From the NCBI RefSeq assembly GCF_050920415.1, contig NZ_CP169309.1: DNA of 64,000 nt, one strand, 5' to 3'. Of this stretch, positions 9,728 to 37,994 are shown piece by piece; position 1 is the first letter of the stretch, and each line of letters opens with the position of its first letter. This DNA comes from Escherichia coli. Lineage in GTDB: Bacteria; Pseudomonadota; Gammaproteobacteria; Enterobacterales; Enterobacteriaceae. The translations under genes and the position numbers were made by a program. The notes under the pieces are model-generated. The model was not told where the DNA came from. It made no database searches and worked only from the letters and a program-made list of their open reading frames with translations.

Positions 9728-9765
9728 ATTTTCTCTAATTATCTTACTGAAAAACGCAGGCAACC

Positions 9766-10752
9766 TTACGCGGTAGTCGCTAAACGAAGCTTCAACAGCG
9801 CGCTCTGCAAAGCATTCCAGTCAGCTTCGCTGCTGGAAATCAGCTCAATACGACTGTCCGGTGGAGCAACGTTTTGCGTTTCAATGTGCAGGTCATCGCC
9901 CTGACGGTTGATTCGCACCAGCCCTTCGGGAATACGCATCACGCCTTTGACGCGTTCCACCGGTGCAAGTCGCGCCCATTCCAGAATGCCAATGGTGTCG
10001 AATACCGTATCAGCGTCGAATATCCAGCCACAGGCCTGATGCCCTTGTCCACTGTTCAGACTGCGACGCCAGCGTTGATGCTCTGGCAGGCTTAACGCTG
10101 CTAACCCTTTTTTCACGCTATGCTGATGAGAATGCGCCGCGCTGGCGGGCAACTCGGCTAAATTGCGACGTGGCAAATCCAGAAGATGACCGTCAATTTT
10201 CCCATGTTCGCTGTGAATTAAATGCCGATCGCCACCATTTTGCTGCCACCAGCGCTGTAGCGCTTGCTCACTTTCGGGCGTCGCACGGTCGGATTTATTG
10301 GCGACAATAATGTCTGCGGCAGCCAGCTGGTCACGGAAGTTTTCATTGCTGGCGCTTTTTTCGTCCAGCAGCAAGCGTGGATCGAGAATGCACAACGTGG
10401 CGCGCAGATCTATCCACGGTTCATACACGGGCGCGGTTAAGAGATCGAGGATCTGTTTCGGATGGCCCAGCCCGGTCGGCTCTATCAACAAGCGGTCTGG
10501 TTTTCCCTGACGCAGTAAGGTATTCAACCCTACCTGCATGGGTAAACCATTAACGCAGCACATACAGCCGCCGGGGATCTCTTTCAACAATGCGCCGCTA
10601 TCGGCGAGCAAAGCACCATCAATTCCGACTTCCCCAAATTCATTAACCAGTACCGCCCATTTTTCGTTGGGATCTTTATGGGCTAACAGATGAAGAATCG
10701 ACGTAGTTTTCCCGCTGCCGAGAAAACCGGTGATGAGGTTGGTCCTGGTCAC
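9766..10752 (-). CDS. yeiR: CobW/COG0523-family zinc-associated GTPase
   Basis: 328 aa, P-loop GFLGSGKTT and CxCC motif GGCMCC. Confidence 0.9.
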   Translation of the reverse strand: MTRTNLITGFLGSGKTTSILHLLAHKDPNEKWAVLVNEFGEVGIDGALLADSGALLKEIPGGCMCCVNGLPMQVGLNTLLRQGKPDRLLIEPTGLGHPKQILDLLTAPVYEPWIDLRATLCILDPRLLLDEKSASNENFRDQLAAADIIVANKSDRATPESEQALQRWWQQNGGDRHLIHSEHGKIDGHLLDLPRRNLAELPASAAHSHQHSVKKGLAALSLPEHQRWRRSLNSGQGHQACGWIFDADTVFDTIGILEWARLAPVERVKGVMRIPEGLVRINRQGDDLHIETQNVAPPDSRIELISSSEADWNALQSALLKLRLATTA

Positions 10753-33739: not shown

Positions 33740-33797
33740 TGCGAAGATGCCCGGCGTGGATCCCGCCGGGCATAATCCCAGAAATTCGCTTCTGGCT

Positions 33798-35120
33798 TTA
33801 TAACCGATGAAATTTTGCCAGTAAGGCCAGTGAAAATGTTGTCAGCAAAATGGTAATGACTGCGTAAATATACACTCCTGACCATTCCCAACTGTTTTTC
33901 ACCATAATAACTGGAAGCCCTGCCATTGCCGCGCCTAAATAACTAAACAAGCCCCTGAATCCAGTAATGGAACCTGCCGCATCTTTATGCGTAACATCAA
34001 GACACCCGACAGCGAATAACATATGCGGTCCATACAATGCAAACCCCATGATTGTAAACAGAATAGCCGTTAATGTGTAGGAGACGTCCTGCACCAGCGG
34101 TACGAGAACGATGCAAATACATAAAGCGATGGCAAAGATTAATCCTGTCATCCAGCGGTTACTTTTAAACATGAAATCGGACAAGTACCCCGCCAGTAAT
34201 CCCCCAGCAAGTCCACCTGCTTCAAACCAGGATATAATGGAGTTCGCTTTAATCAGGCTCCAGTTATGAACCTGAGAATAATAAATTTGTGGCCAGTCAT
34301 TGAGGATGGTGCGTGCAATATAGACCGACATATCCCCGAGGATAATGAGCCAAACTAATGGGTTGGTAAGAATATATTTAACGAATATTTGCCAAAAACT
34401 GAGATCAACCGGACTTGCTTTAACTTGTGCAAGTTCTGTCGGGTCGTTGCGCCACTTACCGACGTTAGGCAAACCGAGCGTGCCGGGACGATCTTTTATC
34501 GTAAACAAGGCAACAATCCCCATAATCAGTGAGATTACACCCGGAACATAAAAGCCCATCTTCCAGCTGCCACTAAAAGCAATAGCAAAGCTTGTCAGGA
34601 GAGGCGCAAGACTACCGCCAATATTATGCGCAGCTTCAACAACTGCCCACCAGCGTCCGCGTTCATTTTTCGAGAACCACGAGGCCATAATTTTTGCCAT
34701 TGGCGGAAAACTGGTACCCTGGAGAATAGCATTAAGGCTATACAGGATATAGAACGCAGCAACGCTGTCTGAAAAACCGAAAAGAATGTTAACAATACCG
34801 ACGCCAATAAGTACGGGGCCAGTCATCGCTCGTGGGTTAATTTTATCGACTAACATGCCACCTACAAACTTCATGGAGCCATAAAGAATGTAAAAGACCG
34901 ACGACATGATAGCGAAATCTTGTGCGGTTAATGACGTATCCGTTAACATCGCTGGCATGGCCGCAGAGAAATTCTTGCGGGTTAAGTAAAATACGGCATA
35001 AGAGATAAATACAGAGGTGATGATTTCAATGCGAAATTTTTTATAAGTATGATCAACTTCTTCTTTTGGTTTGACCACCGGTTGGTCGGCCTGGCTGAAA
35101 ATAAATTTTTTCAAACTCAT
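33798..35120 (-). CDS. Organophosphate:phosphate antiporter-family MFS transporter (GlpT/UhpT/PgtP-like), accessory
   Basis: 440 aa 12-TM ORF; AT-rich codon usage; RBS aaggaaa before ATG 35118-35120; no counterpart at this position in the K-12 order. Confidence 0.7.
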   Translation of the reverse strand: MSLKKFIFSQADQPVVKPKEEVDHTYKKFRIEIITSVFISYAVFYLTRKNFSAAMPAMLTDTSLTAQDFAIMSSVFYILYGSMKFVGGMLVDKINPRAMTGPVLIGVGIVNILFGFSDSVAAFYILYSLNAILQGTSFPPMAKIMASWFSKNERGRWWAVVEAAHNIGGSLAPLLTSFAIAFSGSWKMGFYVPGVISLIMGIVALFTIKDRPGTLGLPNVGKWRNDPTELAQVKASPVDLSFWQIFVKYILTNPLVWLIILGDMSVYIARTILNDWPQIYYSQVHNWSLIKANSIISWFEAGGLAGGLLAGYLSDFMFKSNRWMTGLIFAIALCICIVLVPLVQDVSYTLTAILFTIMGFALYGPHMLFAVGCLDVTHKDAAGSITGFRGLFSYLGAAMAGLPVIMVKNSWEWSGVYIYAVITILLTTFSLALLAKFHRL

Positions 35121-35152
35121 TGTGAGTTTCCTTTTCTGTGAACCTTATGGCG

Positions 35153-36040
35153 CTATAATTTTTCTTCTATAAAAAAGAGAAGCGACTCGAAACCATTAAA
35201 ATTAATCTGGTCAGCAATTTTTTCCCGGGTTTTAGATTTTGCTTTCCATGCCACGCCATTTCCGGCATGCAAAAGCATAGGAATATCATTGGCACCATCT
35301 CCACAGGCAATGATGTTTTCACGGCAGATAGCTAACTCTGTCGCTAAATTTATCAGGGTTTGCTTTTTCTTTTCTGCATTCATAATAGGTAAGGTAATTG
35401 TATCAGTTAACAGATCTTCCTTAATGCGCACAGAGTTAGAAAATGCAAAATCAAGTTGATATTTTTCCTTCAATCGCTCAGTAAAAATATCCAAACCTCC
35501 AGATATAATTGCCGTCTTGAATCCTTTTTCTTTTAGTATGGGAAGAATAGTTTCAAGACCTGGTGAAAGAGTCATCTGTTCACAAACTTGATGCAATATA
35601 TCTTTATGCGTTCCTTTAAGCATGGCAATTCGCCGGGTAAAACTGGTATCAAAATCGATTTTCCCTTCCATCGCTTCACGGGTCAGTGCGGTGATTTTTT
35701 CAGAGATGCCGAGTCTACGGGCTATTTCATCGACACCTTCTTCTTCAACAAAGGTGGAATCCATATCAAAGGCAATAATTCCCTGATCCGGCAAGACCCT
35801 GGGTTTACGGAAAAAATCAAACTGATGATTATCAGCACGGTGACGTAAACCAGCATAAAAAGCAGGGTTGGTAACATCATCTGGTAATACTAGCTTTAGA
35901 TACTCTTTATTTATTTGCCCACTGTAATTCGTTGTTAGCGAAAACACCGAGGGGGAAATCTTTAAATGTTGCAGATAATCTTCCAGACATTTTTGGGTGA
36001 TGTCGATGCCTGTTGGCGACAAGAAATAAATAATCGTCAT
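35153..36040 (-). CDS. HAD-superfamily phosphatase, phosphoserine phosphatase (SerB)-like
   Basis: 295 aa; motifs FDMDSTF and GDGANDIPM aligned to E. coli SerB catalytic core; strong RBS aaggag. Confidence 0.7.
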   Translation of the reverse strand: MTIIYFLSPTGIDITQKCLEDYLQHLKISPSVFSLTTNYSGQINKEYLKLVLPDDVTNPAFYAGLRHRADNHQFDFFRKPRVLPDQGIIAFDMDSTFVEEEGVDEIARRLGISEKITALTREAMEGKIDFDTSFTRRIAMLKGTHKDILHQVCEQMTLSPGLETILPILKEKGFKTAIISGGLDIFTERLKEKYQLDFAFSNSVRIKEDLLTDTITLPIMNAEKKKQTLINLATELAICRENIIACGDGANDIPMLLHAGNGVAWKAKSKTREKIADQINFNGFESLLFFIEEKL

Positions 36041-36250
36041 TTACCGCTCCTTTTTATCTGCAATGATTATAATAAGATTTCATAGAGGCTGATGTATCTG
36101 ACAATCACAGTTGTGAATGTTAAATAAAAGATAAAAAAGTACTTTTTTTGATACTTTGAAATAATAAGATACTAAAAGTACCATTTTTGATATCTTTACC
36201 AGGATATAAAGAATAACTATTTTTCAACGTTGAAGGAATCATTTAAAAAT

Positions 36251-37603
36251 ATGGAAAGCTGCATAGATATATTCAAGATAGTTATTGGTCCATCCAGTTC
36301 CCGCACAGTCGGGCCAATGCGTGCGGCTTATAATTTTGTGTCACAATTGAAACAGCAAGAAATGTTACCTTTGTTGCGGAAAATTGATGTCGAACTTTAT
36401 GGTGCGCTGTCATTAAGCCGCAAGTGCCATAATGTTGATGTGGCGATTTATCTCGGTTTGCAAGGACACTTACCTGACAGCGTTGACATTCGCATGGAAA
36501 TGTCCGCCATCAGGCGTGCAGAAACTGAGGCGACGCTGGAAGTTATGCCTGGTGTCAACGTCAGTGTATCCATTCTTTCTAATCTACAAGCGCATCCGGG
36601 GCACCCTTATGCGATGACATTTCGTGCCAGAGATGACTGGTTTACACTTTATGAAGAAACCTGGTTTTCTATCGGCGACGGTCAAGTGCTAAAAGCAGGA
36701 GAGGCGATTATTCCTCCATCAGTCACTCCACATCCTTTTGAATTCCAGAACGCAAACGAATTATTAAAACTTTGTCAGCAAAATGGATTATCTGTCGCGG
36801 CATTAATGATGAAAAACGAACTGCACTGCCAGACAGCAGCTTTTTTGCATGACGATCTTCATAAAAAATGGGAAGTAATGAAGGATGCGGTTTATCGCGG
36901 GATGCATACAGAAGGATTACTTCCAGGTCCGTTTCAGGTTAACCGTCGTGCCTGTGCTTTATATAAATCGTTGCAGTCAAAGGGGTTTTCCAATGACTTC
37001 CTGACTACGCTCAATTGGGTCAATACTTTTGCCATTGCGGTGAGCGAAGAAAATGCTGCGGGTGGACGTGTCGTGACAGCACCCACCAACGGCGCGAGCG
37101 GTATTATCCCGGCTGTACTGTGCTGGTATGATAAATTCATTCACGAGCTTGATACATACTCCGTTACCCGCTTTTTACTGACCGCTGGTGCCATCGCCAT
37201 TCTGTTCAAAAAAAATGCCTCTATTCTGGGTTCTGAAGTTGGATGTCAGGGGGAAATAGGTGTTGCCAGTTCAATGGCGGCAGCAGGATTAGCAGAACTT
37301 ATGGGCGGGTCAGTGGCTCAGGTACTTAGCGCGGCAGAAATTGCGATGGAGCATCATTTAGGTTTGACCTGTGATCCAGTTGGCGGGCAGGTACAAATTC
37401 CTTGTATTGAACGAAATGCTATTTCAGCTGTGAAAGCTATCAACGCAACGACGATGGCGTTGAGTCGCATAAGCGAGCCGTGCATTACACTGGATGAGAT
37501 AATTTCCGCGATGTATGAAACCGGAAAGGATATGAGCGCTAAATACCGTGAAACTTATCATGGCTGTCTGAGCAAATTGCAGCCAAGAAAAAAGGATGCG
37601 TAA
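36251..37603 (+). CDS. L-serine dehydratase (iron-sulfur, single-chain SdaA type)-like
   Basis: ORF track starts at TTG 36230; ATG 36251 gives [17 protein letters not shown] resembling the SdaA N-terminus; 450-457 aa. Confidence 0.7.
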
Positions 37604-37604
37604 G

Positions 37605-37994
37605 ATGAAATATAATACGATGAATAACAACGAAATTATTTTATCACTGTGCGCTCGCATTAAAGAAACGCGTATCTCATTATCATTGACCCAACAGCAG
37701 TTAGCCGAGCGTGCATTGGTGGGCATAGCAACGGTCAAGCGGATTGAAAAGGGGGGAAGTTTAAATCTTGATACTCTCATTTCTCTTCTGCGCGCGCTGA
37801 ATAAATTGCAAAATCTCGATGCCATATTGTTCGAAGCAGAAATGCGTAATTTCAACGAAAATAGTTCCAGCGGCGAAGGGGCAGGGCGACTACAGGTACG
37901 CCAGCAACTGACAGATTTAAACCAGAAGTCTCCAGCCCCGCACGCAGATGACCATAATTTTAGTACGGCGCTGGAAAATACCCTCTGCTGGTGA
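37605..37994 (+). CDS. Small XRE-family helix-turn-helix regulator
   Basis: HTH segment LSLTQQQLAERALVGIATVKRIEKG; alternative ATG 37596 overlaps the dehydratase stop; stop abuts the yeiG stop. Confidence 0.55.
   Translation: MKYNTMNNNEIILSLCARIKETRISLSLTQQQLAERALVGIATVKRIEKGGSLNLDTLISLLRALNKLQNLDAILFEAEMRNFNENSSSGEGAGRLQVRQQLTDLNQKSPAPHADDHNFSTALENTLCW

Follow-up and report, generated by a model that had tools for sequence, protein, structure and literature searches.

Two imperfect palindromes, O1 (36136-36157) and O2 (36175-36196), lie between two divergent operons in the 64,000-nucleotide stretch of Escherichia coli DNA analyzed here (the window). We propose that they are paired operators of the XRE protein encoded at 37605-37994 and that they act as a unit controlling both operons, a reading to which we assign a probability of roughly 0.78 on the basis of sequence comparisons. 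The sequence-only reading that preceded this work had taken the repeats in this region as the expected mark of a regulator of their own, with the co-encoded XRE protein as a candidate. That suggestion has gained support, at the level of sequence, from the conservation of the sites, the fixed spacing between them, the recurrence of the pair beside regulator homologues that are 31 to 44% identical, and a near-invariant predicted recognition helix.

The sites belong to an accessory island of 4.2 kb (window positions 33740-37994) that contains four genes, is inserted between cirA and yeiG, and is carried by 86 of 5,426 complete E. coli genomes. Since cirA and yeiG are just 31 bp apart in K-12, the island is a clean presence/absence segment. 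The surrounding DNA is chromosomal and agrees fully with strain MFDS1022581 over 5.2 kb. To the left of the sites, on the minus strand, lies the first target gene, encoding a SerB-like phosphoserine phosphatase (35153-36040; TIGR00338, 205.8 bits against a cutoff of 144). Downstream of it, on the same strand, is a gene for a transporter of the major facilitator (MFS) type in the organophosphate:phosphate antiporter group (33798-35120; UhpC/PgtP/GlpT-like), which scores best against the NCBIfam models UhpC (426 bits) and PgtP (343 bits) and falls below every curated cutoff. The right-hand target gene, on the plus strand, encodes an L-serine ammonia-lyase (dehydratase) of the SdaA type (36251-37603; TIGR00720, 547 bits against a cutoff of 345). 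It is followed on the same strand by the gene for the proposed binder, a 129-amino-acid protein annotated in RefSeq as an XRE/Cro-C1-type helix-turn-helix (HTH) protein. The regulator start codon is 1 nt past the dehydratase stop codon, so the regulator is probably cotranscribed with the dehydratase and autoregulated. Annotation of the four genes suggests a pathway in which phosphoserine is imported and dephosphorylated and the resulting serine is deaminated to pyruvate and ammonia, phosphoserine being the putative transporter substrate as judged only from the neighboring genes. No R-M genes were found in the island or its flanks.

Conservation is uneven across the island genes when E. coli is compared with Salmonella and Citrobacter (loci L003 to L012), with identities of 88 to 92% for the transporter, 58 to 63% for the SerB-like protein, 72 to 77% for the dehydratase, and 69 to 74% for the regulator; the island may be a mosaic, or the transporter may be under far stronger constraint. 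The island was also found, together with yeiG/fghA, in a 9.8-kb record from Salmonella Quebec (NZ_CP022017.1, "plasmid punnamed2") labeled a nonmobilizable plasmid. Given that content, the record may be a chromosomal fragment. Its dehydratase gene is unannotated and aligns at 59% only, and its serB-like gene is split, while both operator sites are kept.

The gap between the serB-like and dehydratase genes, first described as 190 bp, measures 210 bp (36041-36250). The two near-identical repeats reported within it are present, AAAAGTACTTTTTTTGATACTTT at 36135-36157 and AAAAGTACCATTTTTGATATCTTT at 36174-36197. In a repeat search, the best pair of 19-mers (36135-36153 and 36174-36192) agreed at 17 of 19 positions with a start-to-start distance of 39 bp. 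A 19-mer pair this good appeared in 1 of 1,000 dinucleotide-preserving shuffles of the gap, and a 23-mer pair with 19 matches appeared in none of 1,000. What did not hold was the description of these copies as plain direct repeats: each is itself an imperfect inverted repeat, so the gap contains two palindromic sites rather than a simple direct repeat. Both span 22 bp, O1 being AAAGTACTT-TTTT-TGATACTTT with a 16-bp core at 36139-36154, and O2 being AAAGTACCA-TTTT-TGATATCTT with its core at 36178-36193. Five of the six symmetric positions of the core agree in O2 in most species, and three to four agree in O1; the twofold symmetry and the size of the core fit one dimer. An additional GATACT noted between the repeats does exist, at 36168-36173, but it falls in a spacer that is poorly conserved across species; its presence there is probably due to chance.

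Comparison between species showed that the sites persist where the surrounding DNA does not. A profile of the regulator scanned against one genome per species yielded 20 loci, of which 11 contained the same island beside yeiG (E. whittamii, S. enterica arizonae and diarizonae, and eight Citrobacter species). Together with E. coli, these made up a 12-species set whose intergenic regions were aligned. Identity to E. coli in the island loci ranges from 69 to 95% for the regulator and from 58 to 82% for the SerB-like protein. Five blocks are conserved in the alignment, namely, the serB-like ribosome site, an ATT[AG]TA element at 36066-36071, a segment at 36103-36124, and both repeats, and the rest has diverged. 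Mean pairwise identity is 0.87 in the O1 core and 0.92 in the O2 core, each with 10 of 16 columns invariant, versus 0.50 in the spacer between the sites, 0.40 in the flank at 36074-36102, and 0.47 between O2 and the lyase start codon. In every one of the 12 species the two sites start 39 or 40 bp apart, even though the spacer sequence varies. Conservation of sites at orthologous promoters amid diverging DNA is the pattern expected of operators.

These comparisons bear directly on whether the repeats could be a chance product of low-complexity DNA or the relic of a mobile element. The intergenic region is 75% A+T and the island is accessory, both of which would favor such an origin. However, shuffled sequences reach the repeat score only once in 1,000, the 233-bp region is single copy in each of the 86 E. 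coli genomes carrying it, and no further copies exist in the window. The retention of both sequence and spacing in 12 species, within intergenic DNA that has otherwise diverged, already contradicts a chance or relic origin, which we regard as barely credible.

Within E. coli, five alleles of the gap are 93.6 to 100% identical, and the only variation in the cores, at 3 of 32 positions, is confined to the allele that diverges most. Across the slightly longer region 36030-36262 in the 86 genomes, alleles differ by up to 6.4%, and 17 genomes fall at 90 to 95% identity. Divergence this high for E. coli suggests that the alleles are old or were acquired from a relative, for example E. whittamii.

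If the palindromes are operators of this particular protein, they should accompany its gene in other settings as well. The 24 island sites gave the consensus AA[AG]GTAT[CT][GA]TTTTT[GT]ATA[CT] and were used to build a position weight matrix (PWM). In the 64-kb window, the only PWM hits of at least 12 bits were O1 (21.9 bits) and O2 (27.0 bits), and the next best reached 9.4 bits. The nine other loci from the profile scan came from Mangrovibacter (three), Limnobaculum (two), Budvicia (two), Leminorella, and Gilliamella. Their regulators are 34 to 42% identical to that of E. coli, and in these nine distant genomes the regulator gene and an sdaC-sdaB-like operon converge. The 111 kb examined contain 14 PWM hits scoring 10 bits or more, and every one of them falls within approximately 500 bp upstream of sdaC. 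Island and distant sites combined define a family consensus, the palindrome GTATCA-N4-TGATAC, extended to AAAGTATCA-N4-TGATACTTT.

A scan of 385 kb of DNA for half-site combinations with at least 9 of 12 matches to GTATCA-N4-TGATAC found 27 pairs at 38 to 40 bp, every one of them in a regulatory region adjoining a regulator/dehydratase-type locus. Spacings of 38, 39, and 40 bp occurred 7, 15, and 5 times, and any other spacing from 17 to 90 bp occurred at most twice. Four Budviciaceae genomes contain two pairs each, separated by a gap that varies from 53 to 65 bp, and this variability indicates that the unit is the pair rather than the single site. Drawing a consensus from the island and then seeking it near related genes biases such a survey toward finding it, a bias countered by the lack of pairs elsewhere in the 385 kb.

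More remote relatives extended the association beyond serine dehydratase genes. A search of 1.84 billion cluster representatives with the regulator returned 11 clusters with E values of 1e-30 or lower and, among the matches listed, at least about 20 with E values of 1e-20 or lower, with a broad XRE background beyond. Seven clusters were looked up. Six are in the regulator family, with representatives 31 to 44% identical to the E. coli regulator; the seventh, an outgroup (P0068), is on a 1.7-kb contig too short for its gene neighborhood to be read. A dehydratase gene adjoins five of the six family members, in convergent (L027 and L039), codirectional (L030), or divergent (L033 and L036) orientation, and the site pair is found at a spacing of 40 bp in L027 and 39 bp in L033. 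In the remaining case (L037/L038), a plasmid-like locus with Rep3 and integrase genes, the regulator is present and the dehydratase is absent. A pair 39 bp apart nonetheless lies about 170 to 210 bp upstream of the regulator gene, one of its sites scoring 22.5 bits, which leaves the regulator as the one gene that every motif-bearing locus shares. The site and the regulator gene occur together in different lineages and in differently ordered gene neighborhoods.

The same distribution argues against the sites belonging to a different regulator, widely conserved and controlling the breakdown of serine or amino acids, such as Lrp, CRP, ArcA, or a nucleoid protein, with the XRE protein a bystander. 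Such a factor would suit an A+T-rich region, known E. coli serine dehydratase genes are under global regulators, and the separate block at 36103-36124 contains CRP- and ArcA-like words. However, the pair tracks the XRE gene and not the dehydratase, being present upstream of the regulator in L037/L038 and absent at K-12 sdaC, and no second gene is shared by all motif-bearing loci. In addition, GTATCA-N4-TGATAC differs from the consensus sequences of CRP, Lrp, ArcA, and FNR. The K-12 control, a single negative-control promoter, is the long region upstream of sdaC, which has no adjoining regulator of this family and scores at most 7.2 bits with the PWM. Together, L037 and this control make a global regulator quite unlikely as the binder. 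Lrp and CRP (at sdaA and sdaCB) and TdcA/TdcR (at tdc) do share the target function considered here, L-serine dehydratase and serine uptake genes, but they are global or LysR-type proteins with other sites, and the K-12 sdaC upstream region is without GTATCA-N4-TGATAC. In the literature searched, no XRE regulator of serine dehydratase or uptake genes was described.

Nearly all AT-rich loci in which the regulatory region was covered carry a site pair at 38 to 40 bp. The main gap in the association is among G+C-rich members: three homologues on G+C-rich contigs (L030, L036, and L039) had no recognizable site, the L039 contig ending before the relevant upstream region. Sites in Mangrovibacter are weak, matching 9 or 10 of the 12 half-site positions, and form a pair in one of three genomes.

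Several features of these loci are recorded here as observations in their own right. On the E. coli IncFIA plasmid pBH100alpha (L042, 4001-4976), a 146-amino-acid member of the regulator family faces, in convergent orientation, a dehydratase gene of which the 3' third is left, truncated beside aph(3')-Ia and ISKpn26 copies; the segment looks as if part of a chromosomal regulator-sdaB locus had been captured. A small gene encoding a ProQ/FinO-domain protein lies directly 3' of the regulator on the same strand in two lineages (L033, 5412-5795; L037, 4468-4842). Between sdaC and a divergent TerC/Alx-like gene in L016 (about 9750-9855), and also in L018 and L019, there is a conserved element of approximately 100 nt whose reverse complement contains GGGGAGTA. 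It recalls the yybP-ykoY manganese riboswitch, and no significant Rfam hit was obtained in 9200-10100 of L016.

The regulator itself matches Pfam HTH_3 (PF01381) with an E value of 3.5e-9 over residues 19 to 66, which places it among XRE proteins, and it has no obvious ligand-binding domain. The AF2 model contains helices at residues 8 to 25, 30 to 37, 41 to 48, 55 to 64, and 68 to 87, with pLDDT values above 90 over residues 10 to 70, and the predicted structure is a five-helix Cro/C1-type fold. Residues 89 to 125 are modeled as disordered, and the C-terminal residue is a Trp that hardly varies in the family. The predicted recognition-helix segment, G-I-A-T-[IV]-K-R-[IV]-E-x-G, is invariant in ten aligned family members, consistent with a half-site shared across the family. 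The nearest solved folds found by Foldseek, with TM-scores (normalized to the target) of 0.7 to 0.84, are 4ghj (an uncharacterized Vibrio regulator), HipB proteins, R-M controller proteins, and 434 Cro. The closest solved relatives of the regulator bind palindromic operators as dimers or tetramers. A sequence search of the PDB returned generic XRE relatives only, none with a relevant known operator, and a defense-system role for the regulator was set aside after a PADLOC scan gave generic HTH hits only.

HipB, another small Cro/C1-type HTH protein, is the most extensive of these likenesses. The Shewanella, Legionella, and Pseudomonas HipB proteins are among the nearest folds of the regulator, those of Legionella and Shewanella also match it by sequence, and the HipB-related model TIGR03070 is its best NCBIfam match, at 41.2 bits, below the cutoff of 71.65. 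HipB recognizes several palindromic operators with a TATC-containing half-site at its own promoter (operator TATCC-N8-GGATA) and has a disordered C-terminal tail. The island likewise has several palindromic sites with a TATC half-site in the regulator's own promoter region, and the regulator has a disordered tail ending in a conserved Trp. The two systems differ in that no HipA-like kinase gene is found near the regulator, whose neighbors are the dehydratase gene and yeiG, or in related loci, where an L-serine dehydratase gene is the near-constant neighbor, and in that the sites described here have N4 between the half-sites of a 16-bp core and are paired 38 to 40 bp apart. With no HipA neighbor, a score below the family cutoff, and a different operator, we rejected identification of the regulator as a HipB.

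The repressor and Cro proteins of 434, lambda, and P22 share the HTH fold (434 Cro being one of the hits) and resemble the present system in their palindromes of 14 to 17 bp, in an A/T-rich center that is probably read as shape, and in having several operators in a divergent promoter region; autoregulation is likely here, as in those phage systems. Phage operators, however, are about 20 to 25 bp apart center to center and serve a lysis-lysogeny switch, whereas here the spacing is 38 to 40 bp, the genes are metabolic, and no phage genes are nearby. The R-M controller proteins C.Esp1396I and C.AhdI also have a fold similar to that of the regulator. C proteins place two dimers on adjacent palindromes, form a cooperative tetramer, and autoregulate, a mechanism partly reflected in PDB entry titles. 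Each pair of their operators fits within about 35 bp, upstream of R-M genes, which are lacking here, and the spacing of 38 to 40 bp is too wide for a compact tetramer of that kind.

Our preferred explanation is that each palindrome, being sized for one HTH dimer, would bind one dimer of the XRE protein, and that two dimers would bind cooperatively at a distance of 38 to 40 bp, or about four helical turns. This distance is kept in every lineage while the position of the pair relative to the genes varies, which points to a cooperative two-dimer unit. A spacing that is conserved regardless of promoter context should likewise reflect the protein-DNA complex itself. Lying between the divergent serB-like/transporter and dehydratase/regulator operons, the pair would control a probable module for phosphoserine and serine catabolism along with synthesis of the regulator.

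How the sites relate to the promoters is clearest on the left. The invariant ATT[AG]TA at 36066-36071, present in all 12 species, reads on the minus strand as TATAAT (TACAAT in most Citrobacter) and is the probable -10 element of a serB-like/transporter promoter. The serB-like start codon follows about 25 nt downstream, and between the two is a GGAG ribosome-binding site (36047-36050, minus strand, 6 nt from the start codon), whose CTCC on the plus strand is invariant in the 12 species. If 36066-36071 works as a promoter element, as we infer, O1 would be near -87 and O2 near -126. On the right, the dehydratase promoter could not be placed, as the scan candidates were no better than chance and the species comparison fixed only the serB-like -10 element. 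A scan with a sigma-70-like consensus gave two matches, TTGAAA-17-TACCAT and TTGATA-16-AAGAAT, both overlapping O2, against 2.0 expected in shuffles, a level that leaves the promoter geometry and the call of a repressor weak. A palindromic ATTATAAT block was considered as a shared bidirectional -10 element, which would give a 170-nt leader containing O1 and O2, and was rejected, since only its minus-strand hexamer is kept in 12 of 12 species; the plus-strand -10 reading is lost in most Citrobacter.

These promoter-like matches raise the question of whether the repeats are themselves duplicated core-promoter elements of tandem promoters, such as two TTGATA -35 boxes or a TATCAT-like -10 hexamer. 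A TTGATA in each right arm matches the -35 consensus at five of six positions, and the left arm of O2 offers TACCAT/TATCAT, similar to a -10 hexamer; the two scan matches include such words. However, conservation extends over 16 to 22 bp with twofold symmetry, more than one hexamer would need, neither scan candidate has a partner hexamer that is conserved between species, and the scan yields no more than shuffled sequence does. In other lineages 100 to 350 bp separate the same pair from the start codon, and further promoter-like elements occur close by. We consider promoter elements distinctly improbable as the whole explanation, although it is quite possible that operators and promoter elements overlap at O2, and to that extent the two explanations are compatible.

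The palindromes might instead act in RNA, as hairpins in a leader 5' of the dehydratase or serB-like coding sequence that serve as an attenuator, a protein-binding hairpin, or part of a riboswitch. Either site could fold as a short A-U-rich hairpin, and in Budviciaceae a conserved TTGnnn-18-TATAAT, seen by eye, lies just upstream of four sites in the direction of sdaC, so that the sites there could be transcribed. Evidence from the alignment and from folding runs the other way. Rfam gave no match at an E value of 1 or lower in 35900-36400, and the z-scores from single-sequence folding are only -1.5 and -2.0. The 12-species alignment contains no hairpin covariation, with 70.8% of cells paired against 70.6% after shuffling and scores of 0.087 and 0.088, respectively; in most species, mismatches break the inner pairs of O1. 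Conservation is highest in the central T tract, which is unpaired, and this fits readout of DNA shape rather than a loop; the loss of the plus-strand -10 reading of the ATTATAAT block also counts against a leader containing the sites. A role in RNA is, in our judgment, very improbable.

A third conserved block, AATCACAGTTGTGAATGTTAAA at 36103-36124, has a mean pairwise identity of 0.81 and an ATCACA that is invariant in 12 of 12 species. It consists of a 12-bp near-palindrome, TCACA-N2-TGTGA, followed by TGTTAA, and by eye it matches the O1/O2 half-site consensus at 7 of 12 positions only. The block could be a degenerate third site or the site of another protein. Its TGTGA/TCACA and TGTTAA words recall CRP and ArcA half-sites, and we considered the block as a CRP site (TGTGA-N6-TCACA) and rejected it, as on either strand it has one half (TGTGA) only and, by eye, 5 to 6 of 10 core positions. 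The invariant TGTGAT on the minus strand (36109-36104) would be centered near -42 of the putative serB-like promoter, a placement that is suggestive only. In the two Salmonella subspecies the block reads ATCACAG-AT-ATCACAG. Upstream of sdaC in Limnobaculum (L016) and in L027, the last site is likewise followed, after about 28 to 38 nt, by a TGTGAT word, and Budvicia and Leminorella have similar words past their last site.

As for the direction of control, we lean toward a mode in which the dehydratase-regulator operon would be repressed by the regulator and released when substrate is present. Provided that binding occurs, autorepression of this lyase-regulator operon relieved by substrate seems to us somewhat likelier than its alternatives taken together. 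Repression is favored because O2 overlaps both sigma-70-like candidates and because small XRE proteins that have no ligand-binding domain usually repress. On the other side, the sites are far upstream of the serB-like promoter and are 150 to 350 bp upstream of sdaC in Budviciaceae, so activation or a more complex mode may operate. Simple repressors usually sit much nearer to the promoter than -87 or -126. Activation, or coregulation with a factor at the third block, is possible.

It also seems unlikely, but is worth stating, that the regulator is a HipB-like HTH protein with a metabolic enzyme as its partner, its disordered tail of 40 to 60 residues, which bears the nearly invariant terminal Trp, either docking on the dehydratase, which would then be the serine sensor, or reaching the second dimer and thereby setting the spacing. 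In the docking version the two proteins would form a "trigger enzyme" pair. The dehydratase as a near-constant neighbor, the lack of a ligand-binding domain, and a spacing intrinsic to the pair are compatible with such a partnership and do not require it.

As an element type, what we describe is ordinary, since palindromic operators for a transcription factor are standard in divergent promoters; the regulator family is apparently undescribed in the literature searched. A full-text search, whose incomplete coverage means that it is not proof of novelty, found no description of the island, the regulator, or the site. Operators of the XRE protein at O1 and O2 would provide an uncharacterized XRE family with a testable regulon, defined by a 16- to 22-bp site, a fixed two-site architecture, and few target operons. 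This family accompanies L-serine dehydratase genes in Enterobacteriaceae, Budviciaceae, and Gilliamella, and in E. coli the sites mark the control region of a 4.2-kb accessory island. Serine use affects gut colonization by E. coli, and a strain-variable, separately regulated module for serine and phosphoserine may therefore bear on niche differences between strains.
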